64,000 nucleotides of DNA. It comes from Treponemataceae bacterium. Its GTDB lineage: Bacteria > Spirochaetota > Spirochaetia > Treponematales > Rectinemataceae. The notes under the pieces were generated by a model, which was not told where the DNA came from, ran no database searches, and saw only the letters and a program-made list of their open reading frames with translations. The DNA lies in NCBI GenBank assembly GCA_963667725.2, contig CAXXHO010000003.1, positions 512,001 through 576,000 on the forward strand, read 5' to 3'. Made by a program: the position numbers and the translations under genes. Below, piece after piece: positions 3,931 to 22,448 of this stretch; position 1 is the first letter of the stretch; the number at the start of each line of letters is the position of its first letter.

Positions 3931-4014
3931 TGGAAGCGGAGGGATTCGAACCCTCGTTGTTTTTCTCAATGCTGTTTTCGAGGCAACCGGTTCCTGCCTC
4001 TGACCTACGCTCCC
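3931..4014 (-). tRNA. Phage-borne tRNA-Ser(CGA)-like gene, possibly degenerate
   Basis: Minus strand: acceptor GGGAGCG/CGCTTCC, T arm GAGGG-TTCGAAT-CCCTC, loop CTCGAAA, long variable arm; imperfect anticodon stem and weak D arm. Confidence 0.6.
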
Positions 4015-4150
4015 GGATGCGGGGCGGCGTTATCTGGCGCCCCGCTTTGTGCAATCTATGAACCCACCGAATTGACGCCTCGGTGGAGGCGAGATACCTG
4101 CCCATACGGACAGGCCCAAATTGCGCCCGCGTGGTAAGTGCGGGGACGCT

Positions 4151-4223
4151 AGGCAGGCGCGGGAGTCGAACCCGCTGTCTCCGGCTTATAGGGCCGGCGT
4201 GGAAGCCGTTTCACCTGTCTGCC
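4151..4223 (-). tRNA. Phage-borne tRNA-like gene with anticodon TAT (Ile), atypical
   Basis: Minus strand: acceptor GGCAGAC/GCCTGCC (1 mismatch), anticodon arm CCGGC-CCTATAA-GCCGG, T arm GCGGG-TTCGACT-CCCGC. Confidence 0.65.
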
Positions 4224-6417: not shown

Positions 6418-6926
6418 TTACTTGGTTAGTCACTTATGTTACATTAAATGAAGATACCACTGCATTCTTTATATAAAGAAGTATCGTTTACCGGTTGACT
6501 TCTCCGAGAAGCCCTTTATCATAACAGACAGTAACACAACTGTTGAATTTCATAATTAGAAAACGATGCTCGGCGTACCCATTCTGTTTCGGCGAAGAGT
6601 TTGCCGAGTGTCCGTAATCTTCCTCTGAAGACTTTAGCCTTAAAAGGGCTATAATGCAGAGATATAATTGGTTGCCTTGAATCTCGTTCATCAACAATAA
6701 AAAAAGAGAGATGCCTATATTACTGTCGCTATTGAGATAAGGTATTGTTTGAGCTTAAAACATATGGTTTTATTCCCTTCCGCATAAAATACCATCTGTT
6801 AGTTTATACAGGTTAAGATCTTTTATGTAGAAAGAGAAGTAACCCATCCATAGAGAAGCAGTCAAAGATTTTATACTGGTAGATTTTTACTGATTTCACG
6901 TTTATTTATAGATCAACCCAATTATT

Positions 6927-6934
6927 GTTATATG
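6927..6934 (+). other. First crossover site GTTATATG (attI-like or remnant of a decayed attC)
   Basis: Exact reverse complement of CATATAAC (7670-7677) ending cassette 1; no attC palindrome recognised upstream. Confidence 0.6.
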
Positions 6935-6961
6935 GACCTCCGGGCAGTTAAAGGAGATTAT

Positions 6962-7696
6962 ATGGAATATCAAAAAAAATTAATTTTATTTCTAGACCTT
7001 CTTGGATTTAAGTCATTTATTAACGAAAAAACACAACTAGATGATAACTATGTAATGCATATACAAAGTATTATAAACCTAATCGAAACCATACGTGATG
7101 ATTTTTGTTTAGATGCAAGTATTAATCCTAATCAACGGCTTAGAAGTAATTTGTTCTCAAACTCTAGAATTACACAATTTTCTGATTCAATTATTATGAG
7201 TTCATTTTACCTAGTTGAAGATCATCTTAAAGAAACATTAGTTGATATAGTGGCAATGCAATGTAATGCTATTTATAGTGGTTTTCTTTTCCGAGGTGCA
7301 TTAACATATGGAGATATTTTACATACAGATAAATATTTGTTTGGTCCTGGATTTATTGATGCATATGAGATGGAGAGAGATAAAGCAGTATATCCTCGAA
7401 TTATTATTAGCGACTCGGTTATTAATAATGTCAACAGTACATGTAAGGCTTGTGATGATTTAATAGTCACCGATAAAGATGGAATAAAATACCTAGATAT
7501 TTTCAGTGGATTCAAATATAGATTTAACAGAGAATCATCAATAAGAGTAATGATTTCAGCATTGGAAAGAATAATACTAGAAGGTAAAAAAAATCAGAAT
7601 AAAAACATTCTAGAGAAATACTTGTGGCTAGAAGAAGAGTTGCTGAAATATAAAAAAAGAGAAAAAAGACATATAACAAATGCTTCAACCCTATAA
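6962..7696 (+). CDS. Cassette 1: class III nucleotidyl cyclase-like protein
   Basis: LFLDLLGFK, FSDSII, LFRGALTYG, LFGPGFIDAYEME, YPRIII motifs; SD AAGGAG before ATG 6962; stop lies inside attC. Confidence 0.65.
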   Translation: MEYQKKLILFLDLLGFKSFINEKTQLDDNYVMHIQSIINLIETIRDDFCLDASINPNQRLRSNLFSNSRITQFSDSIIMSSFYLVEDHLKETLVDIVAMQCNAIYSGFLFRGALTYGDILHTDKYLFGPGFIDAYEMERDKAVYPRIIISDSVINNVNSTCKACDDLIVTDKDGIKYLDIFSGFKYRFNRESSIRVMISALERIILEGKKNQNKNILEKYLWLEEELLKYKKREKRHITNASTL

Positions 7697-7795
7697 CGCC
7701 TTTTGTCATGGTTTTTGCTTGAAGATGACGCAAAAACCACGCCAATCTTTCGCTTCGCTCAGGAACAGGCGTTAAGGGTTAAGCCAATGCTAGAT
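7671..7795 (+). repeat. attC site 1 (R' mutated GTT to GCT)
   Basis: ATATAAC-AAATG-CTTCAACC...GGTTAAG-CCAAT-GCTAGAT, 125 bp. Confidence 0.85.
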
Positions 7796-7832
7796 GGATG
7801 CCTTCAGCGAATAAATTGGTAAAAGGGATTAT

Positions 7833-8687
7833 ATGACTAATGAACTTCTTGAATTACTTAGAATTGAAAGTAATGATCTAGATAAAGAATTTAGCAAAGC
7901 ATCAATAAAGGGTAAAGGAACACCACAAGAAATAGCCGACTTTAGAGAAGGTTACTTTAATAGCATTATAAGGAAGTACTTTCCATTTCCTTATAGAGTT
8001 ACTAAAGGCGGGATTATCGATACATTCGGAAATAAATCTGCATCAATTGATTGTGTTTTATGTAATCCTGCTCATCCATATACAATAGATAATTCAGGAA
8101 AATATTCTGTTTTACTTGCTGATGGTATTGATGCTGCTATAGAGATTAAGCCTGATATTAAGTCAAAGCACGAATTGATTAGAGGCTTAAGCCAAATAAA
8201 AAGTGTAAAAATATTACGTAGATCAAAATCACCAATTGTTGTTACAAGTAGGGTTACTGAAGAAATTATTGAGTACTCAAAGACTATCCCTTCATTTATT
8301 TATTCAATTGAAGCAAAGAAAAATATTGAAAATACATTAAATGAAGTTATTGAATATTATGTTCAAAATGATATTCCATTAGAAGAACAGGTTGACTATA
8401 TCGTAATTCATAATATTGGAATATTTGTTAATTATAAATATCAAGAGTTAAATAAAGGATACGTACCTGAAGGAATTCCAAGATATGGATACTTTTTTGA
8501 AACTTGGAACGAGCTTACTTTTGCTGCTTTCTTATTATATCTGAACCTTAGCTTTACAGCAGTTCCAGTTATAACGAGTAGTGTATTAGAACGTTATCTA
8601 TATTCTATCAAACCTATTAAAACTGGAAGGTTTAATTGTGAAGTATTTTGGGAAAAGGGGCATCTAACAAATGCTTCAACCCTATAA
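7833..8687 (+). CDS. Cassette 2: DUF6602-like PD-(D/E)XK nuclease-fold protein
   Basis: FRE...KYFPFPYRVTKGGIIDTFGNKSASIDCVL...AAIEIK; stop lies inside attC. Confidence 0.7.
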   Translation: MTNELLELLRIESNDLDKEFSKASIKGKGTPQEIADFREGYFNSIIRKYFPFPYRVTKGGIIDTFGNKSASIDCVLCNPAHPYTIDNSGKYSVLLADGIDAAIEIKPDIKSKHELIRGLSQIKSVKILRRSKSPIVVTSRVTEEIIEYSKTIPSFIYSIEAKKNIENTLNEVIEYYVQNDIPLEEQVDYIVIHNIGIFVNYKYQELNKGYVPEGIPRYGYFFETWNELTFAAFLLYLNLSFTAVPVITSSVLERYLYSIKPIKTGRFNCEVFWEKGHLTNASTL

Positions 8688-8786
8688 CGCCTTTTGTCAT
8701 GGTTTTTGCTAGAAGATGACACAAAAAACAAACCAATCCTTTGCTTCGCTCAGGAACAGGCGTTAAGGGTTAAGGCAATGTTATGC
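8662..8786 (+). repeat. attC site 2 (intact)
   Basis: ATCTAAC-AAATG-CTTCAACC...GGTTAAG-GCAAT-GTTATGC, 125 bp, near-identical to attC1. Confidence 0.9.
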
Positions 8787-8860
8787 GGATGCTTCGCGCA
8801 AGTAAATATTGTAGTATAGCAAATATTCTTAAAAACCTGTCTTAATAAAAGGCAAAAGAA

Positions 8861-10261
8861 ATGCCAAAACATCTATCATTAAAAATTTCAAATATGATAA
8901 TAAAGCTTTATCAAATATGGCCTTTTAATAGAGTTCCCGCAGCAAAAATTGTAAATAAATATTTGCATTCTGGAAGATTGTTAAATTTTAAATATAAAAC
9001 ATTAGATGAAATTCTAAATCTTGAGGCAATATGCCAATATTTTATTATTCCAATAGAAAAAAGGTTTAAGCTAATTAAGATTATTGATAAATTATATAAA
9101 AAATATGGAATAAAGCAGTTTGGAAATGATACAGATAGGTTGAAAGAGCAATTTGATAATTTATCATTGTCATCCGGTGGTTGGTCCAATTTATGTTATT
9201 TAAAGATAGATATTAATGGAAAAAATGGAGTTAATAGTGCTTTTATTAGCGTGGCACGGGTAGAAGAATCATTGCTTCTTGTAACAATTAAATCAATTCC
9301 CTCGGAAAAATTTAAATATAAGTATTATCAAGCAATAAAAATGCAAAACAAAGAATTTCCTATCCTTTATTATAGTTCGATAAAAGGCTATATAAAAAGC
9401 CCTGGATTTACAGATTATCTATATAATGTTCAGATATCATATGAATGCGATAAGCTAATTGATTGTTATAAAAAAATGTTAAATAAAGTATTCAAGATGT
9501 TAACAAAAGAATCATTAATTATTGCTCCGTTATCTATATTTATTTGTTATATAGATGGTCCACTTGCAGAAGACTATTATAAACGGGAACACCTTAAGTC
9601 ATGGAATAGGCTTGGGTTAATCGATGGAGAATCTTCAATAATTGGAGACGATGATAAAAAGTTTTATTTGATAAATAAGAAAAGTATTAAAAGTGACACT
9701 TTCTATTGCTTTGTTGATAAAACTAAAATGTTGTTAGAAGAGTTTTATTCTGAATACTGTGAAAAAATATTTTCATTACATGATGATATGCAAATTATTT
9801 TCGTATGGAATATTATAAAAGATAGTATTACTAATCGAATATATTCTCAACTTAACGATATCAGAGCAGATCTATATGAAAATGAGAATGGTTGGGAGAT
9901 ATTGAAGAATAAATACTTAAGTCCTTACGGAAATGTTATAAAAAATAAATATATTTTCGAAAGAATATTTGAAAATAATGGTAAAATCAGTGAAAGAGAA
10001 GCAAAATGGTTTGGAATAAGTACAATAAATATTGTTGATATATTTTCAAATAAAATTAAATTTACGGAATATATAAATAAGCAAATATCATATAAAACAA
10101 ATAGAATTAGTAAAATTATAAAAGATATTACTTTTGCGCTTGAAGGATATAAAAGCATAAGAAACGATCGTAGCAATTTAAAAATCCAAATTTGGTTATT
10201 TGCATTAACAATAATAACTGTATTAATTGGATTAATTCAAATAGTAATTGCGGTCGAATAA
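8861..10261 (+). CDS. Cassette 3: hypothetical protein with a single C-terminal TM helix
   Basis: 466 aa, very AT-rich; ends IQIWLFALTIITVLIGLIQIVIAVE; stop overlaps R''. Confidence 0.75.
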   Translation: MPKHLSLKISNMIIKLYQIWPFNRVPAAKIVNKYLHSGRLLNFKYKTLDEILNLEAICQYFIIPIEKRFKLIKIIDKLYKKYGIKQFGNDTDRLKEQFDNLSLSSGGWSNLCYLKIDINGKNGVNSAFISVARVEESLLLVTIKSIPSEKFKYKYYQAIKMQNKEFPILYYSSIKGYIKSPGFTDYLYNVQISYECDKLIDCYKKMLNKVFKMLTKESLIIAPLSIFICYIDGPLAEDYYKREHLKSWNRLGLIDGESSIIGDDDKKFYLINKKSIKSDTFYCFVDKTKMLLEEFYSEYCEKIFSLHDDMQIIFVWNIIKDSITNRIYSQLNDIRADLYENENGWEILKNKYLSPYGNVIKNKYIFERIFENNGKISEREAKWFGISTINIVDIFSNKIKFTEYINKQISYKTNRISKIIKDITFALEGYKSIRNDRSNLKIQIWLFALTIITVLIGLIQIVIAVE

Positions 10262-10341
10262 CAAATGCTTCAACCTTATAAATGCTTTGGCATGGCGTGT
10301 GTAAAACACCAATGCACAAACCACGCTAAGCCTTCGCTCAG

Positions 10342-12264
10342 CTGACGTTGTACAGCGTGTGGTATAATACAGTAAGCAATAAAGCAGCTTAATATATTAT
10401 ACTGACAACAAATAACTAAAAACGGACTGTACAAAAAGCATGATGCAAATGCGGTATAAGATATTTATAAATATTCGAAATAAAACTTTACAGATAAAAC
10501 ACTATGTTGTATAATTAGCGGTATAATGAACGTACGGAAATGTACCCTAAAGAATGCTCAAGGCGGTACCTATACGTACCTTCAACTTGTGCACAACTAC
10601 CGCGTCAAGGAAACAGGAAAGACCAAAACCAATGTCCTTATGAAGCTCGGACGGGAAGATCAGATCGAGCCTTCCTACATCCAGGCGATCATCAAGGCAC
10701 TGTCTGCGGTCTTAGGCGAATATCCTTCTGAAGTCCCCGCCGGATTTGACTTCCATTCAAGTCGGGAGCTTGGGGGCACCTGGCTTCTAGATGCCCTATG
10801 GAATCGTCTTGGCATGGCAAAGGCTATCAAAGGGCTTCTTAAGGAACGACAGTTCGCCACACCCGTCGAACGGCTCTGCTTTGCCATGGTTTCAGGAAGA
10901 ATACTCGCTCCGGGTTCGAAGCTTTCTCTTGAACACTGGGTTTCAAAGAAAGCATATATCAGGGATCTTGTGAACGTCGATGTTCACAATCTTTACCGGG
11001 CGATGGATCTTCTTGTGGAGTCGAGCGAAGAACTCCAGAAGCACATATTTACCGAAGTATCAAAGAATGCCCACCTTGATGTGGATCTTATCTTTCTTGA
11101 TACGACGAACACCTATTTCGAGACCGACGAAGATGCTTCCGGTTCAGGGCTTTTAAAACGTGGCCACAGTAAAGATGGACACCCCGAGCTACCGTTGGTT
11201 TCGATTGCCTTTGCGGTGACGCGTAGCGGCATTCCTATTCGCTGCTGGGTATTCCCGGGCAACACGAGCGACCAGACGATCGTCGAGCAGGTGAAAGGTG
11301 ATCTAGGACAGTGGAATCTTGGTCATGTCGTCATGGTCCAAGATGCAGGATTCAATAGTGCCGACAACAGAAGAATCCTTTTACGGGAATGCGGTGACTA
11401 TATCATCGGCGAAAAGCTCCGCGTTGGTACCGATGGCGCCGCGGTAGAAGCCCTACACCGGAAAGGGCGATTCAGGATCCTGGAAAGTGGCCTCGCGATT
11501 AAAGATGTCGTCCTCGATGCAGGGAAAGCCACGGAGCGCCGATTCATCATCGTCAAGAATCCGGAAGCCGAAACGCGCGACCATGTCATACGCGAACAAA
11601 TCGTCGATGCTACGAAGCGCAAGCTTGATGAACTGTCGCAGTATACGGGGAAAGCACACACGAAAGCGGCGTGTGCGCTACGCTCTCATTCCGCCTATGG
11701 CAGATACATTAGGCAGGATACGAAGGGTGTCTTGCACCTCGACACCGCCAAGATAGCCTCAGAGGAACTCCTTGATGGCAAGTTTCTAGTGTCGACGTCC
11801 AGCATGAAGCTGGATGCTGCCGATATTGTTGCCGGCTATAAGCAGCTCTGGGCCATAGAGCGGGTATTCAAGGATATGAAAAACACCTTGGATATTCGTC
11901 CCATATACCACCGACTTGATGATCGTATTCGAAGCCATATTCTTATTTGCTGGCTTGCCATGGTGCTGGTACGGTATGCAGAGAATATGGCGGACCGGTC
12001 GTGGTACCAGATTGAAAAAGTTCTGTCCGATGTTACTGCAGGGCTTATTGAGAGCGACAATGTAAGCCTCTGGTATTGCTCTGATATTTCCGACGAGGCG
12101 AAGGACATTTTCAAGCGCTTAACTATTGAATTACCAAAGAAAGTTCTTGCTACAGTAGCAAGAGATCCTGTTGCGGTATAAAAGATTTTCGACTGCAATC
12201 GTATAACTCTATTATTTATAGAGTATTAGCAAGATTTTCTATACCGCGCACTGTACAACGCCAG
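10342..12264 (+). mobile_element. IS1634-family insertion sequence
   Basis: TIRs CTGACGTTGTACAGCGTGTGGTAT / ATACCGCGCACTGTACAACGCCAG (20 of 24 match); flanks CTCAG / CTCAA resemble a target duplication. Confidence 0.88.
10526..12181 (+). CDS. IS1634-family DDE transposase
   Basis: YLQLVHNYR N-terminus, FLDTTNTYFE, RGHSKD, FPGNTSD, DAG, YKQLWAIERVFKDMK, RPIYHR. Confidence 0.92.
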   Translation: MNVRKCTLKNAQGGTYTYLQLVHNYRVKETGKTKTNVLMKLGREDQIEPSYIQAIIKALSAVLGEYPSEVPAGFDFHSSRELGGTWLLDALWNRLGMAKAIKGLLKERQFATPVERLCFAMVSGRILAPGSKLSLEHWVSKKAYIRDLVNVDVHNLYRAMDLLVESSEELQKHIFTEVSKNAHLDVDLIFLDTTNTYFETDEDASGSGLLKRGHSKDGHPELPLVSIAFAVTRSGIPIRCWVFPGNTSDQTIVEQVKGDLGQWNLGHVVMVQDAGFNSADNRRILLRECGDYIIGEKLRVGTDGAAVEALHRKGRFRILESGLAIKDVVLDAGKATERRFIIVKNPEAETRDHVIREQIVDATKRKLDELSQYTGKAHTKAACALRSHSAYGRYIRQDTKGVLHLDTAKIASEELLDGKFLVSTSSMKLDAADIVAGYKQLWAIERVFKDMKNTLDIRPIYHRLDDRIRSHILICWLAMVLVRYAENMADRSWYQIEKVLSDVTAGLIESDNVSLWYCSDISDEAKDIFKRLTIELPKKVLATVARDPVAV

Positions 12265-12355
12265 CTCAAGCCCGGATTTAAAAGCTAAACCAATGTTAGG
12301 TAGACCCTTCGAGTAGGACTATTAATTTAATTTTTTACACTAAAAGGATAGATTA

Positions 12356-13555
12356 ATGTCAGGACGATCAGCAACTGAAACAATTCGTGGTTTTTATTAC
12401 CAATTTGATTATTCAATTCTGAAAATACTCCGTTCTGACAATGATACAGTCAGCTTTGATATCGAAAAGATTGAAGACCTTGATATCAACACAGTTGATG
12501 AAACAACGGCGGTGCAATGCAAGTACTATTCTGGGACTGGATATAATCATTCAGTGATTGCTGAACCAATTCGAAAAATGATTAAGCATTATTCTCAGCA
12601 TCTAGACCAATCGATAAGATATAAACTTTATGGTCATTTTGCTTCAGGTCAGGATAAGCTCACATTGCCAATTGATATCAATTTTCTTAAAAGTTATTTT
12701 TTGACTTACAATCACAAAAATGTTAAGCATGAGTTTCAGATTGACGAATCTATCGATGATGAAATATTAGCAAGCTTTTTAGATGTATTGGATATTGATA
12801 TAAACGCTGCTACATATGAATCACAATTTTCAGAAATACAAAAGTTATTATGCAATTTGCTTTCTTGTACAGAATTTGAAGCCGATTCTTTATACTACAA
12901 TAGCGCGCTTCGTATAATTAAGGAATTATCTGTTCAAAGGGATGATTCAAAGAGAAGAATAACTAAAGCAAAAATGGTAGAGAGCATTTCCTGTAAGGAT
13001 ACCCTATTTGGGATCTGGTACATGAACTTGAAGGGGAATGAAAAATATTGTAGAATAATTAGGAAGAAATATTTTACTCAGCTTAATACATCTCCGTTTG
13101 AGAGATTTTTTATTATTGAAACTTCTCCGAGCACATCGATTCAGAATTTGAAAAGCATTACATATATGCTAGCTAATAAATGGTCAAAAATATCACGAAG
13201 AACAGTAGACACTTATTGCGCCTTTGTTTTATTTCCCCAATTAGGTGCATCAAATCTTAAGGAACTAAAAGTACAGCTCTATAAAGAAGGACTTCCAATC
13301 ATTGATGGATATCCTTTCCATGGATCTAATTTATGTACAGATTTTCTTTCGATCGAACCTAGATATGATAATAGAATTAAACTAAAATTCATAAATTCAT
13401 TAGGTGACTTTGCAGAATATCTTGATTATTCTACTCATCGTAAGGAAGTGTATCAATTTTTTACCTCGCAATCAGTTGATTTAGGTACGACAAACTTCGA
13501 TTTGCATATTTCAATTTGCTTGAAGAACGTCATGGACATATTGGAGGTATTATAA
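12356..13555 (+). CDS. Cassette 4a: DUF4297-family anti-phage nuclease-like protein
   Basis: RSATETIRGFYYQFDYSIL...IEDLDI...VQCKYY (Cap4-like PD-(D/E)XK with QxK); coupled to HerA. Confidence 0.8.
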   Translation: MSGRSATETIRGFYYQFDYSILKILRSDNDTVSFDIEKIEDLDINTVDETTAVQCKYYSGTGYNHSVIAEPIRKMIKHYSQHLDQSIRYKLYGHFASGQDKLTLPIDINFLKSYFLTYNHKNVKHEFQIDESIDDEILASFLDVLDIDINAATYESQFSEIQKLLCNLLSCTEFEADSLYYNSALRIIKELSVQRDDSKRRITKAKMVESISCKDTLFGIWYMNLKGNEKYCRIIRKKYFTQLNTSPFERFFIIETSPSTSIQNLKSITYMLANKWSKISRRTVDTYCAFVLFPQLGASNLKELKVQLYKEGLPIIDGYPFHGSNLCTDFLSIEPRYDNRIKLKFINSLGDFAEYLDYSTHRKEVYQFFTSQSVDLGTTNFDLHISICLKNVMDILEVL

Positions 13556-15330
13556 TGCCCGAAATAAATGCTGAAGTAGTTGGTGTTTTCCCAAGCAAAG
13601 TACGTATTTCTGTTGATAATATTAGTGATTTTAAGGTTGTTGAAGAAGAGCTTAAAATCGGATCGTACTTAAGGATCATTGGAGACAATGAAAATGTCAT
13701 TCTAATCGCAATGATCAATAGCTTCTCTATAGAGGCTACAATTGAAGGTGGCCGTAAGCATTTTATAGAAGCTTCTCCTTTAGGGATAATTACAGATGGC
13801 ATTTTTATTCGAGGAGGAGATTCTATCGCCATTCCTCCAAAGAAAGTTGAACCCGCAAAGAAAACAGAAATACAAGAGATATTTGGAAATTCCGTACCTG
13901 ACGCTAAAAAGTACATTTTTTCCACGCTAAATGCAAATCGATCAATTTCTGTTCCAGTTGATGGTGATAAATTCTTCAATAAACATATTGCCATCGTCGG
14001 ATCAACTGGTTCCGGGAAATCGCATACTGTAGCAAAACTCATTCAGAAAGCTCGCGATGCAAAAAATTCTGGATATTCTGGATTGAATAATTCTCATATT
14101 GTGATCTTTGATATTCATTCAGAATACAAATCAGCATTCCCTGAGGCTAATGTATTATCAATAGATAACTTGATTATTCCTTATTGGCTATTGAACAGTG
14201 ACGAGCTTGAGCAAATATTGCTTGATACTGGCGAGAGAGATAACTATAACCAAGCTTCAGTATTTCGAAGCTTGGTGACCGAAAATAAAAGACTAAAAAA
14301 TCCAACAGTAGATAAGGTTTTCTATGATAGTCCCCTTTTCTTCGATATTCAAGAAGTTCTCAATGCACTAACAAACATAAAAAATGAAACTGTAAATGCA
14401 AAAAATACAGACAGATATATGATTGTTGATCCTTCATATAAACTTGAAGCTGAAGGCAAAACAAATGTAGATTCAGGTATATTGTTAACTAACGATGAGA
14501 AAATGAGCAAATACTTTGAGAAGGTACTTTCATTCCACCCTAGAAAATCGCAGAGCATAACTTCAGGTGACTATTCTGATGGAACCTTGGATAAATTTGT
14601 TTCTAGGTTCCAAGCAAAAGTTTCCCAGGATAGACTCGAGTTTCTTTTTGGAGAGCATGCTAAATCAATATCCTTTTTAGATACTGTTAAGCAATTCATT
14701 GGATATGAAGAGAAAAAAGAAAAAAACGCTATAATTATAGACCTTAGTGGCGTGCCTTTTGAAGTCTTAAGTATTACCGTATCCTTAATTTCTCGTGTGA
14801 TATTTGAATATGGTTACCACTACAAGCGTTTTAGAACCAGAAAAGATCCATCTGAAAAAATCAATAATGACACACCAATTCTAGTAGTCTATGAGGAAGC
14901 TCATAAATATGCGCCAAGAAGTGATCTTGCGAAATACCGACCATCTTTGCTTGCTATTGAGCGGATAGCAAAAGAAGGTAGAAAATATGGCATTTCTCTA
15001 TTATTGGCTAGTCAACGGCCCTCAGAAATATCAGAAACAATCTTCTCGCAATGCAATAACTTTATAGCGATGCGTCTTACAAATCCTGATGACCAAAGTT
15101 TTGTAAAGAAACTCCTACCTGATACAATGGAAAGCCTGATTGATCAATTACCTGTATTAAGAGCTGGCGAGGCATTGCTAATAGGAGAAGCGGTTGTTAT
15201 ACCATCAATTGTAAAGATAGAAACATGTGATATCCCTCCTTCCTCAAATGACATCCCATATTGGCAATTATGGAAAGGTAGTTGGAAAGAATCTATACTC
15301 GAAACCATCGAGAAGGAATGGATGAAATAA
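13555..15330 (+). CDS. Cassette 4b: HerA/FtsK-like ATPase (DUF87)
   Basis: HIAIVGSTGSGKS Walker A, DIHSEY, EEAH Walker B, IAKEGRKYG, SQRPSE; TAATG overlap with the upstream stop. Confidence 0.92.
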   Translation: MPEINAEVVGVFPSKVRISVDNISDFKVVEEELKIGSYLRIIGDNENVILIAMINSFSIEATIEGGRKHFIEASPLGIITDGIFIRGGDSIAIPPKKVEPAKKTEIQEIFGNSVPDAKKYIFSTLNANRSISVPVDGDKFFNKHIAIVGSTGSGKSHTVAKLIQKARDAKNSGYSGLNNSHIVIFDIHSEYKSAFPEANVLSIDNLIIPYWLLNSDELEQILLDTGERDNYNQASVFRSLVTENKRLKNPTVDKVFYDSPLFFDIQEVLNALTNIKNETVNAKNTDRYMIVDPSYKLEAEGKTNVDSGILLTNDEKMSKYFEKVLSFHPRKSQSITSGDYSDGTLDKFVSRFQAKVSQDRLEFLFGEHAKSISFLDTVKQFIGYEEKKEKNAIIIDLSGVPFEVLSITVSLISRVIFEYGYHYKRFRTRKDPSEKINNDTPILVVYEEAHKYAPRSDLAKYRPSLLAIERIAKEGRKYGISLLLASQRPSEISETIFSQCNNFIAMRLTNPDDQSFVKKLLPDTMESLIDQLPVLRAGEALLIGEAVVIPSIVKIETCDIPPSSNDIPYWQLWKGSWKESILETIEKEWMK

Positions 15331-15335
15331 AAGAC

Positions 15336-15457
15336 GCCTAACAACTACTTCAACTGGATAATTCCTTTGGCACGGTTTGTGAAATCGCTTCGCTCTTTAT
15401 GCACAAACCGCGCCACGCCCTTCGAGCACGGACTTAAGGGTTAAGCGAATGTTGTGT
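15336..15457 (+). repeat. attC site 4 (apparently intact)
   Basis: GCCTAAC-AACTA-CTTCAACT...GGTTAAG-CGAAT-GTTGTGT; inner arm CGGTTTGTG/CACAAACCG. Confidence 0.85.
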
Positions 15458-15498
15458 AAACGCCTTCGGCGCTAAAGGAAATAAAAAAGGAGTAACGA

Positions 15499-15696
15499 AT
15501 GGATCAAATAATTAAATATTTTTCAGCAAATTATGAGTGGTTATTTTCCGGAATACTGTCAGGATTGATATTTTTTTTACTCGGTAACAAGCACGGATAT
15601 GATAAGGCAATAAAGCAGAAGCAAAAGGTTGGAAAAAACGGTAAAGGCATCCAGGTCAGTGGTAATTATACAGTAACAGGAAAAAGCAATGAATGA
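15499..15696 (+). CDS. Cassette 5a: 65 aa membrane peptide with C-terminal Q/N/G motif
   Basis: SD AAGGAG; hydrophobic WLFSGILSGLIFFLLG; tail QKQKVGKNGKGIQVSGNY. Confidence 0.75.
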   Translation: MDQIIKYFSANYEWLFSGILSGLIFFLLGNKHGYDKAIKQKQKVGKNGKGIQVSGNYTVTGKSNE

Positions 15697-16528
15697 AAAA
15701 CAAAATCAAAAAGTAGGTGATAATTCAACTGCCATTCAAGTTAATGGCGATTACCATGCTGGACTTCCTTATGATCAAGTAAAATCAATTTTTATGGATT
15801 TATTTGAGCTAAACTTCCCAAGAATACAGACATTGGCAAAAGCAGAAGCCGATAAACGAGTTCAAGAATTACTTAATAATTTAAGACAGTCAATGGAAGC
15901 TAAACAAAGCAACATTGATGTATTAAAATTTACTGATCCAGGAATTCAAATTGAGATGCAGCAAATGATTACAAGTGTTGCCTGCAGAGGAAACAAAAGT
16001 AATATTGATTTGCTTTCAGAATTATTTACAACTATAATCGAAAAAGATTGCCCAGAAATAATTGAGCAAATCGCTGGTGAAACTCTTAAAATAATACCAT
16101 TATTAGGGAAAAAGCAACTTGATGCTTTATCCGTTATGATTTTAACATTTGAAGCAAGTGTGGAAATTATAACAATCGAACAAGCAGAAAATGTTTTCAG
16201 AGATACTATGCCATTTATACGTCATGCAGAATATATAACATCCGGTGACCTTTCCTATTTGGTGTGTGTTAATTGTATATCTCGAAAGTCAATTACTCAT
16301 GTTAATGTTGTGCCAAATATCATTAGATGTATTCCAGGAATGGACAAAACTGGCATTGAAGAAGTAATTAATCAATCGAAACAAAAGCGGTTGTTAAATA
16401 TTCTATCATTCACAGAGTACATGGGAAAATGTCAAATAGGGCGATTTGATTTATCTCCAGTTGGAAAACTGATTGGATGGCTTAATATACAAAGCATTTC
16501 TAAAATCGATATTAAAACGTTATTTTGA
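15689..16528 (+). CDS. Cassette 5b: LPO_1073/Vpar_1526-like protein
   Basis: N-terminal QNQKVGDNSTAIQ...GLPYDQVKSIFMDLFELNFPRI...FTDPGIQ recalls this family. Confidence 0.7.
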   Translation: MNEKQNQKVGDNSTAIQVNGDYHAGLPYDQVKSIFMDLFELNFPRIQTLAKAEADKRVQELLNNLRQSMEAKQSNIDVLKFTDPGIQIEMQQMITSVACRGNKSNIDLLSELFTTIIEKDCPEIIEQIAGETLKIIPLLGKKQLDALSVMILTFEASVEIITIEQAENVFRDTMPFIRHAEYITSGDLSYLVCVNCISRKSITHVNVVPNIIRCIPGMDKTGIEEVINQSKQKRLLNILSFTEYMGKCQIGRFDLSPVGKLIGWLNIQSISKIDIKTLF

Positions 16529-16531
16529 ATC

Positions 16532-16636
16532 GCACAACAACTGTTTTAAGCTGAAAATTCCTATTGGCATGGTTTGTGCTGTCGCTTTGTTCGGAACAAA
16601 CCACGCCAAGCCCTTCGGGCCGGAATTGAAGGTTAA
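16532..16636 (+). repeat. attC site 5, truncated (R' missing)
   Basis: GCACAAC...GGCATGGTTTG/CAAACCACGCC...GGTTAA, then unrelated palindrome in place of R'. Confidence 0.75.
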
Positions 16637-16693
16637 TCTTGGGATGGTACCTCCCAAGAAAAAATTCGATTGTTTATGCAATGAGAGTTACTG

Positions 16694-17323
16694 ATGAACT
16701 GCTTAAAGGAAAAAATGCTGAATAGAACTAACTCGAAAATTGAGATTGGATTCGTGAATGAACACACTGTAGAGTATGTTCTTGTTCAAAAACTTGTAGA
16801 AATTATAGGGAATATACCTCATGCTTTTCTTTTTCCTTACCAAACAAGAGAGGGAAACACAGTTTCCAGAGAAATACATAGAAATGATAATTTTAGTATG
16901 ATTGGAATATTTTCTAGAAGACCGAAAATTAGACTTGACCATAAAGAAGATATATATATAAAAATCAACCAAGAAATTATCGATTATTCAAATAAAGCAT
17001 ATACCTTTGGTATCCCTTTTATTGCAGGATGCCCAATAGCATCAAATTTTTGGGATCTTGGTAATAACATCGCCTGGTTTGATTTACAAAAAATGAAAAG
17101 AGAGTGCCTTATAAAAGTAAGCAGTCAAAGCTTAAGAAGTAATTCAAGTGAAGAATTGCTTACAACAAACAAATTACGAGATGTATTATTAAATAATAAG
17201 ACCATATTTAATATTACAAATGCAATGGATGCAATTAAATATTCTGTCAGCAAAATGAATCAGTATCGGTATTCACTATTCGGTCCGATTTATAAACCTT
17301 TTTATCTATTAATAAGAAAATAG
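16694..17323 (+). CDS. Cassette 6: hypothetical protein
   Basis: 209 aa AT-rich ORF between attC5 and attC6; no family recognised. Confidence 0.7.
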   Translation: MNCLKEKMLNRTNSKIEIGFVNEHTVEYVLVQKLVEIIGNIPHAFLFPYQTREGNTVSREIHRNDNFSMIGIFSRRPKIRLDHKEDIYIKINQEIIDYSNKAYTFGIPFIAGCPIASNFWDLGNNIAWFDLQKMKRECLIKVSSQSLRSNSSEELLTTNKLRDVLLNNKTIFNITNAMDAIKYSVSKMNQYRYSLFGPIYKPFYLLIRK

Positions 17324-17353
17324 TGACTATCATAATTTTATGGTAAACTCGTT

Positions 17354-17473
17354 GCCTAGCAACCGCTTTATCCTAATTCGCAATGAAAAGGTTTTCGTAG
17401 GTTTTGATAAACTATAAGTTTTCCGTATGCGTAACAAAGCGTGACGGCTTAAAAGTCAAGCTAATTATCATGA
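17354..17473 (+). repeat. attC site 6, strongly degenerate
   Basis: GCCTAGC-AACCGCTTTATCCT...GTGACGG...GTCAAGC; colinear homology with attC7. Confidence 0.55.
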
Positions 17474-17574
17474 TATAATAAATAAGAAATTAAGACATAT
17501 GGTCTAGATAATAGAATATAATAACTCTGCATTATTTGTTTTTACAGTATTATCGTTGTGCTTACGGGGAAAAA

Positions 17575-18387
17575 ATGTATTACAATAAATTGACTATTAT
17601 TCGAAAAATATTTGATGGTGGACAAAAAAATGTTTTTCTTGCGAATGATTCTAGTGACACAACTATAGTATATAAGCTTTGTAAACCGAAAAATGATTAT
17701 CAACTTGAGCGATTTAAAAGGGAGCTGATGTTTTTACACTCCCAACATAAATCTTGTTTTCCGTTTGTTATTGATTATCATATTGATGAAAGAACAAAAG
17801 AAATCGAAATAATTGAAGAGTTTATTGATGATGGATCATTAACCGATCGCTTGAATAATATCTGGACAGAGAATGATTGTGTTATTTTCCTTAAGAAAAT
17901 ACTAGAGCCCTGTATTGAATTATGGAGCAAGAATATAGTACATCGAGATATAAAACCTGATAATATAATGTTTAGAAAGAATGGCGAACTTGTGCTTATC
18001 GATTTAGGAATAGCTCGTTTCATTGACTACTCTTCAATAACTAATACCTTAAATATTATGGGTCCTTGTACTCCAATTTATGCAGCACCTGAGCAAATTA
18101 TTAATCAAAAAAGGTTTATCGATTTTCGCACAGATTTGTTTTCTATAGGCATAGTAGTTCTTCAGCTGTTTTTAGGTTTTCATCCATTTGATCCATGCAA
18201 AATAACTAACAGCAAAGCTGATATTATTCAAAACATTTTAGCGGGGGTTTATGCATCAGCGAAAAGCAAAAATTCTTGTAGCGAATACTTTAGTATTTTA
18301 ACTAATAAGCTGCTGAAAACAAGGCAATACCAAAGATTCAGTTCTGTCGATGAATTAAATAAGTTCATTTCTACAAACTGGGGGTAA
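17575..18387 (+). CDS. Cassette 7a: Hanks-type Ser/Thr protein kinase
   Basis: GGQKNVF, VYK, RE, HRDIKPDN, DLG, YAAPEQ, DLFSIG. Confidence 0.92.
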   Translation: MYYNKLTIIRKIFDGGQKNVFLANDSSDTTIVYKLCKPKNDYQLERFKRELMFLHSQHKSCFPFVIDYHIDERTKEIEIIEEFIDDGSLTDRLNNIWTENDCVIFLKKILEPCIELWSKNIVHRDIKPDNIMFRKNGELVLIDLGIARFIDYSSITNTLNIMGPCTPIYAAPEQIINQKRFIDFRTDLFSIGIVVLQLFLGFHPFDPCKITNSKADIIQNILAGVYASAKSKNSCSEYFSILTNKLLKTRQYQRFSSVDELNKFISTNWG

Positions 18388-18391
18388 GAAC

Positions 18392-19582
18392 ATGCTTTTA
18401 TTACATCAAACTGGTAATAATTACAAATGGAACATTCAAAGCTTTACTGAAGATCATATTGGTGACGGATTAATTCTGTCGCCAATAAATACTAGTTATA
18501 AAAATCTTGAAGCGTTACCAAAAGCAATTATAGAAAAATCTGTTTTTGACCCTCAATTATTAATGCCATCTAATGGGAATGGAAAACTTACAACATACCC
18601 ATATTTTCCTACTTCAATATTGCCTTCGTATAGATCTACTGATTATGAATCAATAAAAAAAGAAATTGCACGACAATATACTCAGATGATTATTAAGCTT
18701 GGATTTAAAAAAATTATTATACCAAATAGATACAGTGATATTGAATCCTCGACATATCTTGAAAACATACAAAGCAATTTTATAGAACCATATTGCAATG
18801 AAATTCCTTCATCTCTGAAGATAGCAAAATATTTAACTATATTCGTCAACAAAACAAGGCTTATTGATGATGAAGCAAGAGATACAATGCTTGACTGGAT
18901 AACAGGTCTTTCAGAAATAGATGGTATATATCTTATATTTGATATTAAACGAACAACAAAGCAGATAAAGGACGTAGATATTTTAGCCGAAGCACTGTTT
19001 TTTGTAAAATCAGTTGAATCATCTGGTAAAAGAGTTATAATCGGCTTCACGAATACAGAAGGAATTTTATTTTCTATTGCTGGGCCTGAAGCTATAACAT
19101 GTGGCAGTTATGAAAACTTACGTAACTTTAGTATGTCAATAAGTCGATTTGCTAAAAAGGAAAAGGAAAAAAAAGGTAGACGGGGACCAAACGCACGATT
19201 GTATAGTGCCGTACTAATACAATGGATTGAATATAACTATGTTAAGGCTTTAGTAAAGAATCGTTATAGCCGATTATATGAAATATTCGCTGATTCAAAG
19301 TATCGGCCCTTATTCTTTGAGCCAACTTATAACTGGCATTTTGGAAGATCGGAACTATATAAACATTTTTTCATAGAGATTGATCGACAAGTAAAAGACC
19401 TCCCAGATGATCTTGATGAAAGAAAAAATTATTTGCTTTCAGCTATAAAGAATGCAATTACTATTTATGAAGATATTGCTCAGAGTGGTATATTACTTGA
19501 TTCTGATAGTAATGGAACGCATCTCAATGGATGGTTCAATGCAATCACTATATATGATAGATTAGTTAGGGAGCGGTTATAA
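18392..19582 (+). CDS. Cassette 7b: hypothetical protein, possibly TIM-barrel/beta-protein-like
   Basis: HQTG, ILSP, FDPQ motifs; alternating beta/alpha pattern; 4 nt after kinase stop. Confidence 0.6.
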   Translation: MLLLHQTGNNYKWNIQSFTEDHIGDGLILSPINTSYKNLEALPKAIIEKSVFDPQLLMPSNGNGKLTTYPYFPTSILPSYRSTDYESIKKEIARQYTQMIIKLGFKKIIIPNRYSDIESSTYLENIQSNFIEPYCNEIPSSLKIAKYLTIFVNKTRLIDDEARDTMLDWITGLSEIDGIYLIFDIKRTTKQIKDVDILAEALFFVKSVESSGKRVIIGFTNTEGILFSIAGPEAITCGSYENLRNFSMSISRFAKKEKEKKGRRGPNARLYSAVLIQWIEYNYVKALVKNRYSRLYEIFADSKYRPLFFEPTYNWHFGRSELYKHFFIEIDRQVKDLPDDLDERKNYLLSAIKNAITIYEDIAQSGILLDSDSNGTHLNGWFNAITIYDRLVRERL

Positions 19583-20013
19583 TGTTTCAATCAGAGAGTG
19601 ATTTATCTTTTGCATTTAAAAAAATTTTACCGACTACACATTGGGCAAATACTGAAGTGTTCGAAGAGGTTGAAGGACTATTAGGCATTCCTGATTTTAT
19701 TCTAATTAAAAAAAACAGAAAAACAAATGTTGCAATTGGTGTTGAACTCAAGTTATCTAACTGGCAAAGAGCAATGAATCAGGCGTTTAAGTATAAAACA
19801 TTCTGTAATATGAGTTATGTTATAATGGATGATGCACATATTGAACCGGCAAAGAAAAAACTTCCTGATTTCATCCGTTATAATATTGGTTTGGCTAGTA
19901 TTGATGATAATAAACATGAAATAAAATATTTTTATAAGCCTATAATGCAAGAACCATATTCTGAAGAGCTAAACACGAAACTATATCAGAAGTTATTCGC
20001 AAGTATATATTAA
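19582..20013 (+). CDS. Cassette 7c: small PD-(D/E)XK nuclease-fold protein (MmcB/sce7726-like)
   Basis: EEV...GIPDF...GVELKLSNWQRAMNQAFKY; TAATG coupling. Confidence 0.7.
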   Translation: MFQSESDLSFAFKKILPTTHWANTEVFEEVEGLLGIPDFILIKKNRKTNVAIGVELKLSNWQRAMNQAFKYKTFCNMSYVIMDDAHIEPAKKKLPDFIRYNIGLASIDDNKHEIKYFYKPIMQEPYSEELNTKLYQKLFASIY

Positions 20014-20018
20014 CAGCG

Positions 20019-20140
20019 GCATAATAACCGCTTTTACCTTATTCGAATTGACTAGAATATTCATAGGTCTTGAAAAACCATTGGTTCTCTGTATGCACAG
20101 TATCGAGTGACGGAATAAAGATTAAGCGAAAATGTTAGGT
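20019..20140 (+). repeat. attC site 7 (R'' AAC to AAT)
   Basis: GCATAAT-AACCG-CTTTTACC...GATTAAGCGAAAAT-GTTAGGT. Confidence 0.65.
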
Positions 20141-20258
20141 GGACGCTATACGCGGGAAAAAACAATCAAACTTGTGAAATATGAGGGAGAAACTGATGGA
20201 ATAACAGCCGCCTTGATTGTTTGTTTTGTCTTGTGGACAGCCTGGCGGCGTTAGTATT

Positions 20259-20585
20259 CTATTCTTGCGAAACGACTAAATCCCAAGCACTGTTCATTCC
20301 TTCCAGCACAAACTTTGATTCATGATTGTTTTTTACATAATACAGATAATTACGCTGGTAAAAATTATACTCTTTCCCTGCTGTTTGAGTGGGCAGAACG
20401 ATGATGATTAACTGCGTCTTTTCAGTTAGCGTCTTGCTTACATCAGTGCTCAAGTTACATGAAGCTTTTTTCCTTCCACCAAGACACTTTGATTTCCATA
20501 CTATACTTCCATCAGATGCTTTTACCTCAAAGGTTGCTGACATCATTACCGCAGCATTCTGAAATGATAAAACCTGTGCTTCCAT
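20259..20585 (-). CDS. Hypothetical protein
   Basis: SD AAGGAG before ATG; 108 aa. Confidence 0.6.
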   Translation of the reverse strand: MEAQVLSFQNAAVMMSATFEVKASDGSIVWKSKCLGGRKKASCNLSTDVSKTLTEKTQLIIIVLPTQTAGKEYNFYQRNYLYYVKNNHESKFVLEGMNSAWDLVVSQE

Positions 20586-20905: not shown

Positions 20906-22087
20906 TCAGCCTTTTGTAGCTTTGTTGGCTCGTTTGTCGCCGCGGTCTTTGTCGAGTATGTCTTTCACCGAAAGTCCCTCTTTGTAGACTGTTTCGTCAT
21001 CCGGATGCTGGTACCCCTTCGAAGTGACCGAACTCGCGTGGCCCATAAGAAGCATAAGGGAAGCTTCGTCCAGAATTTCTAGCTTGTATGTTCCAAAACT
21101 GTGACGGAGGTAGTATGGCGTCCAGGTGGAATCCATGTATCCCAAACGCTTCATTGCACGTTCGAAGCAATTTCCTATTGAAGCTTCCGACACCGGGTTT
21201 GATCGGCCGGGAGCCGTAAACACGAAGTCCATATCGTCGGCAGTCATTGTCTGCTCTTTCCATATAAGCAATTCCTGAACCGTTCGCTCCGAAAGATATC
21301 CAGGTCGAACAATCCCCGTCTTTGTGGTCTTTACCTTGCTGTTTGTCCCTGATTCAATCGCTGTCCGGATAGGAACGAAACGCTTCTCAAGGTCTATCTG
21401 CCCCCACCTAATCGCCCGGAGTTCTCCAGGGCGTGCCCCCGTATCATTCATGGCGAAGAAGAATGCAACATACATTGGCGAACCATAGAGCTTGATGGCT
21501 TCGCCATGGGTAGCCGGATAAAGTATGACGATGACCTCACGGGGGAGGGCAGACCGGGGCTTTTCTGGGGCTTTATTGTATTTGACCACTCCTTCAAGAG
21601 GGTTTTCCTTGACGAGCCCTTGCTGGCGCCAATAGGTGAACATTAGAGAAAGCGCATAGAGCATCTTGTTCCGCGTGCCGCGGGCGTATGGGGAGCCATT
21701 GATCCTGTTGAGGCTTTTTATTGTGATATTGATCTCTGACGGCTCAAGCTCCTGGATGTTACAGGCACCGAAGACCTTCAGAAAATGGTTCTCGAGGAAG
21801 CCTTGATAGATGGCGAGGGTGGCATCGGTTCGCTTCCAGCCATGTTCTACCTGGTCGCGATCCCACGCCCCATCCTTGTTGAAGAATCCAACAGCGAGTT
21901 CGGAGAAGAGGTAGTCTTTCGCTCTGCCTAGAAGAACAAGGTGATTTCTCGACGCCCATTTCACGGCAGCTTCCCGGGTGCTCTCGGGAGACATGAACCA
22001 TTTTCCGGGGGCATCGTCGTATTCTACGCGAAAGCGTTTCTTCCCTGGTATCCACTGCGTCTTGATAGCTTTTTTCGGTCTGGGCAT
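20906..22087 (-). CDS. Phage-type tyrosine recombinase/integrase
   Basis: TGARPGEL (R), KT, YYLRHSF (HxxR variant), LMGH, YQH; N-terminal arm-binding-like and SAM-like domains; adjacent to tRNA. Confidence 0.92.
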   Translation of the reverse strand: MPRPKKAIKTQWIPGKKRFRVEYDDAPGKWFMSPESTREAAVKWASRNHLVLLGRAKDYLFSELAVGFFNKDGAWDRDQVEHGWKRTDATLAIYQGFLENHFLKVFGACNIQELEPSEINITIKSLNRINGSPYARGTRNKMLYALSLMFTYWRQQGLVKENPLEGVVKYNKAPEKPRSALPREVIVILYPATHGEAIKLYGSPMYVAFFFAMNDTGARPGELRAIRWGQIDLEKRFVPIRTAIESGTNSKVKTTKTGIVRPGYLSERTVQELLIWKEQTMTADDMDFVFTAPGRSNPVSEASIGNCFERAMKRLGYMDSTWTPYYLRHSFGTYKLEILDEASLMLLMGHASSVTSKGYQHPDDETVYKEGLSVKDILDKDRGDKRANKATKG

Positions 22088-22203: not shown

Positions 22204-22275
22204 TAGCCCCTAGGGGAGTCGAACCCCTCTTTAAAGATTGAGAATCTTTTGTCCTAACCGATAGACGAAGGGGCC
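22204..22275 (-). tRNA. tRNA-Glu(CTC)
   Basis: GGCCCCTTCGTCTATCGGTTAGGAC-AAAGA-TTCTCAA-TCTTT...GGTTCGACTCCCCTAGGGGCTA. Confidence 0.95.
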
Positions 22276-22320
22276 TCGTGAAAGAAATGGCTCTCTGTTC
22301 GAGAGCCATTTCTTTCACGA
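22276..22320. repeat. Perfect inverted repeat between the two tRNAs
   Basis: TCGTGAAAGAAATGGCTCTC-tgttc-GAGAGCCATTTCTTTCACGA (20 bp stem). Confidence 0.8.
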
Positions 22321-22377
22321 GCGAGATTTTCGCCCGCGGCTCAAATCTCGCATCGCATCCGATCGGTAAAACCCAAG

Positions 22378-22448
22378 TTCCCCAGGGAGGATTTGAACCC
22401 CCACAAGCAGATCCAGAGTCTGCCGTGCTACCATTACACAACCGGGGA
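22378..22448 (-). tRNA. tRNA-Gln(CTG)
   Basis: TCCCCGGTTGTGTAATGGTAGCAC-GGCAGA-CTCTGGA-TCTGC...GGTTCAAATCCTCCCTGGGGAA. Confidence 0.95.

Follow-up and report, generated by a model that had tools for sequence, protein, structure and literature searches.

A motif shared by a small membrane peptide and Vpar_1526/LPO_1073-family proteins marks a mobile gene pair with a possible role in amyloid-type phage defense

We analyzed a two-gene unit within a 64,000-nucleotide stretch of DNA from a Treponemataceae bacterium (GenBank assembly GCA_963667725.2, contig CAXXHO010000003.1, positions 512,001 to 576,000 of the forward strand), referred to here as the window. The unit encodes a membrane peptide of 65 amino acids (aa) and a 279 aa protein of the Vpar_1526/LPO_1073 family, and both products carry a copy of the same motif of approximately 20 residues, at the C-terminal end of the peptide and near the N-terminus of the larger protein. 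Our data indicate that the motif is a general, unannotated feature of the Vpar_1526/LPO_1073 family. Furthermore, comparison of related loci shows that the peptide plus motif-bearing head behaves as a module with exchangeable receptors (i.e., a Vpar_1526 protein or an NB-ARC/TPR protein). We hypothesize, at about even odds by our own estimate, that the pair is a mobile two-component membrane-effector/sensor module that would provide abortive-infection-type phage defense via motif-coupled amyloid-type signaling.

Both open reading frames (ORFs) proposed in an initial annotation of the window are present on the + strand, at 15499-15696 (65 aa) and 15689-16528 (279 aa), and overlap by 8 nucleotides (nt; ATGAATGA). 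Each has a Shine-Dalgarno-like sequence, as read from the + strand: AAGGAG at 15487-15492, 6 nt upstream of the ATG of the 65 aa ORF, and AGGA at 15678-15681, 7 nt upstream of the ATG of the 279 aa ORF. Across related pairs, the spacing from the stop of the first gene to the start of the second ranges from -29 to +12 nt (18 of 21 pairs; L001, L007, and L009 were left out of the count). We rejected a single gene split by a frameshift, since each ORF has its own start and Shine-Dalgarno-like sequence and the two-gene form recurs in related loci with overlaps of differing length. Promoter-like sites found in a sigma-70 consensus scan were no more numerous than in shuffled sequences.

The effector-side copy of the motif spans residues 40-57 of the peptide (15616-15669, + strand) and the receptor-side copy spans residues 5-22 of the larger protein (15701-15754, + strand). 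By direct count the two 18-mers are identical at 11 of 18 positions, so that both the identity and the positions given in the initial annotation were correct. The same annotation had the 279 aa protein starting with the motif; the copy is indeed N-terminal, but it begins at residue 5. In a BLASTP comparison of the two products, the motif was the sole similar stretch (12 of 19 residues identical, E 2e-6 for this single comparison), matching residues 4-22 of the larger protein. The match to the family model NF045477 begins at residue 25, and the motif thus precedes the Vpar_1526/LPO_1073 domain and lies outside the domain model. Among the 12 closest homologues of the larger protein (43-100% identical), the N-terminal motif is better kept than the rest of the protein, with K4, Q5, G10, S13, A15, I16, Q17, and G20 invariant.

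We next considered the motif across the family. Forty motif copies from 20 pairs could be aligned without gaps over 22 columns. The motif of approximately 20 residues can be written K-Q-x-Q/M-K-V-G-D/N-N-S-x-A/G-I-Q-V-G-G-N. A profile of these 22 columns reached at least 5 bits near the N-terminus in 114 of the best 150 representatives of the family and in none of 150 reversed controls, which is why we regard the motif as family-wide. Three positions are specific to the side on which the motif lies: position 3 is M on the effector side versus Q on the receptor side, position 4 is K versus D/E/N, and position 15 is G versus a polar residue. As a speculation, the opposition of K and D/E at position 4 might favor hetero-stacking over self-assembly of the effector. 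The initial annotation had suggested checking whether the motifs co-vary between partners, and cognate motifs are indeed slightly more alike than non-cognate ones (mean identity 9.6 versus 8.84 of 18 residues, 20 pairs); only 0.28% of 20,000 permutations reached the observed value (p 0.003), in a test that ignores relatedness. This set left out L024, whose variant is not alignable over 18 residues, as well as duplicates and the Escherichia coli and L051-L057 pairs. In a six-frame scan of the window's own genome only this pair carried the motif, five other regular-expression matches having the look of chance.

The pairing itself is conserved. We fetched 19 loci encoding relatives of the larger protein (L001-L019; 1 genome and 18 metagenome contigs); L004, L011, and L017 end too close to the gene for the upstream region to be judged, and two loci duplicate others. 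When genome contigs were scanned, the single protein found no relative and the alignment of relatives found one. In all 16 assessable loci, an upstream ORF of 57-91 aa with a hydrophobic helix and a C-terminal motif ends within a few bases of the start of the large gene. Homologues lacking a motif-bearing upstream partner, which the initial annotation had named as evidence against its proposal, were therefore not encountered among these 16 loci. Four sampled genomes of the phylum besides the window's own hold a family match over the cut-off; the distant members in L021, L022, and L024 are paired, with a divergent motif variant on both sides in L024, and the L023 member is fused. Thus, the architecture first noted in the window, with the motif at the effector C-terminus and the partner N-terminus, is kept across close and distant relatives.

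A DNA pattern for the effector-side motif gave eight matches in IMG/VR, each of which is a small membrane ORF directly upstream of a motif-bearing protein (six Vpar_1526-like, two NOD-like receptor [NLR]-like). The pair also occurs in the viral contigs L028/L029, where the partner is a different, two-helix membrane protein. Overall, the membrane modules differ: some are of the NYEW type, with one helix, and those of L019, L028/L029, and E. coli have two helices. The pairs are found in prophages of E. coli, in a prophage of Vallitalea, in Oceanisphaera, and in cassettes of the integron type. In one locus (L051:3060-3964) the upstream membrane gene is intact and the Vpar_1526-like partner is present in three consecutive frame pieces (87, 132, and 98 residues), possibly a decayed copy or an assembly error.

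The receptor itself can be replaced. Two viral contigs (L030/L032 and L031) encode a 59-residue peptide that is 69% identical to the window peptide and identical to a hypothetical protein attributed by a source to Vallitalea guaymasensis. In L030/L031 this peptide precedes not a Vpar_1526 protein but a protein of 871 aa that matches NB-ARC (E 1.5e-6) and TPR_12 (E 1e-142). Residues 1-21 of the 871 aa protein are identical to the window's 279 aa protein at 20 of 21 positions (95%, E 2e-9), and nothing else in the two proteins is similar. This pair directly follows a prophage amidase endolysin and a holin-like gene. Because the NB-ARC/TPR protein takes the same place with the same motif, we assign the Vpar_1526 protein to the receptor position; moreover, a peptide paired with an NB-ARC/TPR protein is the effector/NLR arrangement of amyloid signaling, which supports the architectural reading.

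Fused forms exist as well. In four of the best 150 representatives (P0089, P0150, P0151, and P0159), a membrane helix, the motif, and the Vpar_1526 domain lie on a single chain, and in L023 one ORF encodes membrane helices, several copies of the motif, and the Vpar_1526 domain. P0159 holds two motif copies, and the tandem copies in P0159 and L023 are reminiscent of HET-s, which carries two pseudo-repeats.

We found that the core of the motif, NSTAIQVGG, resembles the RHIM and BASS3 motifs. According to the available parts of the report by Dyrka et al., on which this and the later comparisons with that work are based, G-phi-Q-phi-G is the core common to RHIM, the fungal PP motif, and bacterial BASS3 (10.1101/2020.01.06.895854). 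The window copies, GIQVSG in the effector and AIQVNG in the receptor, do not match G-phi-Q-phi-G exactly; exact matches number 7 among the 20 effector-side motifs, and none of the 20 receptor-side motifs has one. On the effector side, 17 of 20 motifs contain the tetrad (I/V)Q(I/V/A)G, compared with 3 of 20 on the receptor side, where 18 of 20 read IQVxG. When a profile of the 40 motif copies was compared with 177,635 PDB sequences at E<=10, the sole match was a 22-residue RIPK1 RHIM peptide (9hr9), in which NSTGIQIG aligns with NStAIQVg over 8 residues at a non-significant E of 1.1. The likeness of IQVxG to the RHIM core, noted in the initial annotation, was thus reproduced by the profile comparison, at a level that is suggestive, not significant. 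Metazoan RHIMs of RIPK1/RIPK3 have in common with the motif the core N-S-T-G/A-I-Q-I/V-G and differ in that the window copies (IQVSG/IQVNG) are one residue longer than the tetrad.

The 65 aa peptide has a single hydrophobic segment. Its best 17-residue Kyte-Doolittle window (1.72) covers residues 13-29, and hydropathy, flank charges, and AlphaFold2 together predict a transmembrane helix at residues ~13-29 (15535-15585, + strand) with a small-xxx-small pattern, SGxxSG. The N-terminal flank is neutral, and the 15 residues that follow the hydrophobic segment hold five lysines and one aspartate. By the positive-inside rule, this lysine-rich stretch after the helix indicates that the peptide is probably oriented N-out/C-in with a cytoplasmic tail. 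An AlphaFold2 model built with 21 relatives predicts helices at residues 3-10 and 12-37, followed by low-confidence coil at residues 38-65. No Pfam, NCBIfam, or PADLOC family matched the peptide. The small proteins form a recognizable family of their own, with N11, W14, S17, Q40, and Q52 invariant among the 21 aligned relatives and the consensus MIxFxxxNYEWLFSGILSGLIFWxLGxKxGYxKAIKQxMKxGNNSxGIQVGGN. A peptide-profile search of 401 genomes of the class of L001 returned only the L001 genome's own pair and weak matches to the N-terminal helix.

The N-terminal helix module, NYEWLFSGIGV, is present on many other proteins (P0171-P0184, sequences without genomic context). It occurs without the motif on DUF1292 and receiver-like proteins, and together with the motif and unrelated C-terminal regions in P0175, P0176, and P0178. 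This spread over many other proteins suggests that proteins combining a membrane tether with the motif may form a broader family.

The 279 aa protein is a full-length member of its family. It matches NF045477 (LPO_1073_dom) over residues 25-275 with 138.1 bits (E 3.9e-40; curated cut-off, 45 bits), spanning model positions 1-251 of 257, and this score, far above the cut-off, bears out the LPO_1073/Vpar_1526-like identity assigned in the initial annotation. Precomputed Pfam assignments place the protein and its relatives in PF28206, which is also named in Atlas clusters; our local copy of Pfam and PADLOC returned nothing for either product of the pair. NF045477 was the protein's only match and no NTPase domain was seen, so it is not an NLR/STAND protein. 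The AlphaFold2 model (109 sequences; mean predicted local distance difference test score, 94.5) is coil over the first 27 residues and all-alpha from residue 28, which makes the domain (15761-16513, + strand) entirely helical. Foldseek found no match to this model in the PDB at E<=0.001, and the best VIA-align match among 48,161 chains (Z 6.4) was to designed helical bundles over ~75 residues, below the level at which the tool is meaningful for helical proteins. Near-invariant residues across the 109 sequences are N42, F43, P44, A50, P84, Q87, G101, L109, and G259. A predicted-complex score of 0.01 for the 279 aa protein with the 65 aa peptide, run without controls, supports no conclusion.

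A profile search of 1.84 billion representatives placed 1430 representatives in the Vpar_1526/LPO_1073 family at E<=1e-3. The family is sparse, exceeding the cut-off in 5 of 401 sampled genomes of the window's phylum (the window's own included), and a tblastn search of 50,697 phage records with the 279 aa protein gave no match. Neither NF045477 nor PF28206 carries a functional annotation, and the N-terminal motif and the membrane partner both fall outside the NF045477 model.

We then questioned whether the genomic context of the pair points to a function. The pair lies in an AT-rich island (~26-40% G+C, ~7-20 kb of the window) within a genome of 58-63% G+C. The island lies between - strand tRNA genes (3931-4223 and 22204-22448), with a tyrosine recombinase of the Phage_integrase type by the tRNAs (20906-22087) and an S24/cI-like repressor at the other end (5734-6417). 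Between its + strand genes lie related ~110 bp repeats whose ends resemble those of attC sites; these repeats are located at 7661-7816, 8652-8807, ~10258-10341, ~12278-12315, 15336-15446, and 16532-16638 in an array that spans ~6900-20300; repeat comparison revealed weaker copies near 17330 and 20020. The bottom strands of these repeats fold better than shuffles (z -3 to -5.4). The two-gene pair is exactly one cassette unit (15441-16632). Its upstream site at 15336-15446 reads GCCTAAC...GTTAAGC (z -2.96 for the bottom-strand fold), and its downstream site at 16532-16638, which closes the cassette, reads GCACAAC...GTTAATC (z -2.98). In this comparison of end motifs and folding, the downstream site is one base off the attC consensus RYYYAAC...GTTRRRY at each end.

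The integron integrase IntI is absent from the window, and the array is therefore a CALIN-type cluster (cluster of attC sites lacking an integron integrase); three IntI matches that exceed the cut-off are found elsewhere in the same genome, on other contigs. Carriage of defense systems as integron cassettes has been described ('Mobile Integrons Encode Phage Defense Systems', 10.1101/2024.07.02.601719). Judged by the accessible part of that report, the pair is alike in being a compact system bounded by attC-like sites in an array with other defense cassettes and unlike in the location of the integrases outside the window. The adjoining upstream cassette, likewise bounded by attC-like repeats, encodes the anti-phage pair DUF4297 (NF042945, E 4.7e-134) and HerA (NF042944, E 7.8e-278) at 12356-15330.

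Of 5426 complete E. coli genomes, 7 carry a homologous pair, and in 6 of these at least 80% of its length is covered. One protein of the pair (81 residues) has two helices and the motif at its end, and the other is a Vpar_1526 protein of 285 residues. In the two records inspected, the pair lies between the replication endonuclease gpA/DinI and the portal gpQ of a P2-like prophage, a locus which, in the available text of Rousset et al., is a hotspot of anti-phage systems (PMC9122126). Since the window pair adjoins DUF4297-HerA and the E. coli copy lies in the gpA-gpQ hotspot, genomic context supports a putative role of the pair in defense. Three overlapping hypothetical genes on the opposite strand beside the E. 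coli pair (L040:1687-4437 / L041:3945-6695) probably make up a second system that lacks annotation.

A motif-coupled effector/receptor pair is a kind of system that is already known. The pairing of an effector and an NLR through a motif is the canonical architecture of amyloid signaling (Dyrka et al., 10.1101/2020.01.06.895854). As in the Bell/NLR pairs BASS1-10 of that report, the motifs lie at the effector C-terminus and the receptor N-terminus on adjacent, often overlapping genes, and the likeness to BASS3 extends to the G-phi-Q-phi-G core of 7 of the 20 effector-side motifs and to the existence of an NB-ARC/TPR-paired variant. In contrast to the Bell/NLR pairs, the effector has no family match and is a 65 aa protein with a single transmembrane helix rather than a Bell/HeLo domain of ~100 aa, and the usual receptor is not an NLR. 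The distribution differs too: BASS pairs are reported from multicellular members of the Actinobacteria and Cyanobacteria, with few cases in Proteobacteria and Firmicutes, whereas Vpar_1526 pairs occur in the prophages, Oceanisphaera, and integron-type cassettes listed above. Fungal HET-S/NWD2, as summarized by Dyrka et al. and Ibarlosa et al., has the same two-gene logic and a motif of ~21 residues; its HeLo domain and NACHT/WD receptor are not found in the Vpar_1526 pair, whose motif is presumably unrelated to HRAM.

The closest bacterial precedent is Bab/Agp of E. coli ECOR25, for which the accessible portion of Ibarlosa et al. describes defense against T5 via a shared 20-residue amyloid motif, carried by a small membrane-targeting protein and a large sensor, whose amyloid conversion transmits the infection signal and leads to abortive infection (10.1101/2024.11.07.622273). 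Like Bab/Agp (BASS11), the Vpar_1526 pair consists of adjacent genes, occurs in a prophage defense hotspot, and has a motif of ~20 residues at the effector C-terminus and the partner N-terminus, and the logic proposed here is the same (i.e., the receptor would template the effector toward abortive infection). Unlike the window peptide with its bare transmembrane helix, Bab is a 109 aa protein with a Bell-like helical domain, and its key residues as given in that portion (I87-G88-S89-V90, Q92, D99, and N100) have no obvious line-up with the motif of the pair. Furthermore, Bab/Agp is experimentally proven, whereas the Vpar_1526 pair is known from sequence. What is new in the Vpar_1526 pair is the bare transmembrane peptide as effector, a large non-NLR receptor family, and a host range of unicellular bacteria, prophages, and cassettes. 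A literature search covering LPO_1073, Vpar_1526, and amyloid-signaling antiphage pairs found no description of the pair, although bioRxiv supplements may list related motifs.

We reasoned that the architecture, the exchange for an NLR, and the RHIM/BASS3-like core together make amyloid-type signaling the best reading of the pair. Under this hypothesis, the 65 aa product would be a minimal inner-membrane executioner, consisting of a glycine/serine-rich helix and a disordered cytoplasmic tail with the RHIM/BASS3-like motif, and the Vpar_1526/LPO_1073 protein would hold the place of an NLR-type receptor with its motif on a flexible N-terminal arm. On some trigger, which we presume to be phage infection, the Vpar_1526 protein would oligomerize, and the clustered N-terminal motifs would then stack into a cross-beta nucleus. 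This nucleus would recruit and convert the peptide tails, and the peptide helices, forced together, may open a membrane lesion that stops the infected cell. What the sequences show is the anatomy of the pair and its pattern across relatives; the defense function, the trigger, the cross-beta contact, and the membrane permeabilization are all inferred.

Several observations weigh against this hypothesis. The RHIM likeness is statistically weak (E 1.1 over 8 residues), and a Pfam search at E<=10 with the peptide and the first 40 residues of the larger protein returned no RHIM or other match, although HMMER filters drop weak matches. The co-variation effect is small, as expected where both motif sides stay close to one consensus, and its test is uncorrected for relatedness. 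Neither protein matched any catalogued defense family in PADLOC-DB 2.0 at E<=0.01, and recognizable defense genes flank the pair in only 2 of the 14 outside loci scanned, namely L021 (restriction-modification) and L024 (RhuM/PDC-S05 and PDC-S60). The Vpar_1526 domain has no invariant catalytic-type residues among the 109 sequences and no recognizable fold; it thus bears no positive mark of a sensor, and its proposed sensor role follows from its position and the exchange for an NLR. Fused chains with a single motif copy (P0089, P0150, and P0151) are unexpected for a pure hetero-adaptor. Vpar_1526 has also been reported from uninfected Veillonella parvula, where it was detected in whole-cell, surface, and outer-membrane fractions; the authors state that many false positives are present in this data set (PMC5491611). 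The detection hints at constitutive membrane association.

The last two observations fit plain anchoring equally well. In this alternative, which survives best of those considered and which we regard as unlikely yet worth serious weight, the peptide would be a constitutive anchor that tethers the soluble Vpar_1526 protein or an NLR to the inner membrane through a stoichiometric beta-strand zipper between the two motif copies, with neither templating nor lesion, and the Vpar_1526 domain would be the working part, whether in defense or in another role. The single-motif fusions would then reflect a membrane-attached Vpar_1526 domain as the natural state, as would its presence in V. parvula membrane fractions, subject to the false positives noted by the authors. 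The occurrence of the NYEWLFSGIGV module on unrelated domains, with and without the motif, is also what a generic anchor would do. Anchoring leaves unexplained why the same RHIM-like motif is found on both partners across unrelated membrane modules and receptors, and why a 59 aa peptide would keep an NLR-type STAND protein in a pre-docked state. The conserved asymmetry between the sides (IQVGG on the effector versus IQVxG on the receptor, and K versus D/E at position 4) likewise argues against it, and known systems of the same architecture signal by templating.

Two further readings are less likely. The pair might serve outside defense, in envelope stress, in maintenance of mobile elements, or with the motif as a common degron or localization tag read by a third factor. 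Of the 14 outside loci scanned, two lie in phage structural/lysis regions and two have transposases, and most neighbors are without a family; it is this scarcity of defense annotation, together with the fact that the literature found under the family names merely lists Vpar_1526 (PMC5491611), that favors such a role. We nevertheless consider it distinctly unlikely, given the defense genes around the window copy, the placement of the E. coli copy in the P2 gpA-gpQ hotspot, a patchy distribution (5 of 401 sampled phylum genomes and 7 of 5426 E. coli genomes), and the NLR-paired variant, which points to defense.

A toxin-antitoxin-like arrangement, in which a holin-like peptide toxin would be restrained by a Vpar_1526 protein bound to its tail and freed by loss or titration of that protein, is in our view more doubtful still. 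Toxin-antitoxin modules are abundant in cassette arrays and prophage hotspots, and a gene for a small membrane peptide that overlaps and is translationally coupled to a larger gene on mobile elements has the layout of such a module. Natural fusions of both parts are hard to reconcile with restraint of one by the other, as is a partner that can be replaced by an NLR-like sensor keeping the motif alone; in addition, AlphaFold2 places the motif of the larger protein on a flexible arm and not in a binding groove. Finally, chance similarity or a meaningless duplication remnant, for which only the shortness of the motif speaks, is ruled out by the pairwise E of 2e-6, a motif that is near-invariant in both families, and its recurrent pairing in every assessable locus.

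Going beyond the amyloid-type signaling hypothesis itself, we tentatively propose that the RHIM-like 20-mer might be a portable, self-templating plug that wires a bare transmembrane helix, which would be as small an executioner of cell death as can be imagined, to interchangeable cytosolic sensors (Vpar_1526 proteins or NB-ARC/TPR NLRs). The signaling would be of a prion-like cross-beta kind and would operate in ordinary unicellular bacteria as well as in their prophages and integron cassettes. In that case, the Vpar_1526 family, with its 1430 representative clusters, would represent a major class of amyloid-signaling immune receptors other than NLRs, and the RHIM core of animal necroptosis would have a direct counterpart, possibly an ancestor, in phage defense. 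If the coupling is amyloid-like, bacterial amyloid signaling would reach past the filamentous Bell/NLR pairs and the single Bab/Agp case to a minimal module that is widespread among unicellular bacteria, prophages, and cassettes of integrons, and its single-helix effector would make the question of how motif stacking leads to a membrane lesion unusually tractable. More generally, the analysis offers a testable function for a sizeable unannotated family (PF28206/NF045477); current domain models overlook that its real unit is a gene pair or a fusion. The native E. coli copy in the P2-prophage hotspot makes experiments straightforward.

The remaining cassettes of the array were also surveyed. Those at 6932-10261 and 16694-17323 contain genes without assigned function or with a DUF only, encoding proteins of 254, 284, 466, and 209 aa; the 284 aa product matches DUF6602 (E 5e-17), and the 466 aa product has a hydrophobic tail at its C-terminus. 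A DDE transposase ORF at 10526-12181 (PF01609, E 1e-12; ~52% G+C) interrupts the AT-rich array. Two units downstream of the pair, the region 17536-20013 encodes a Ser/Thr kinase like the PD-T4-6/MADS kinases (PADLOC E 9e-33), followed by overlapping genes for a 396 aa protein and a 143 aa protein, the latter a weak match to the sce7726 family, and these three genes may be a further defense candidate.

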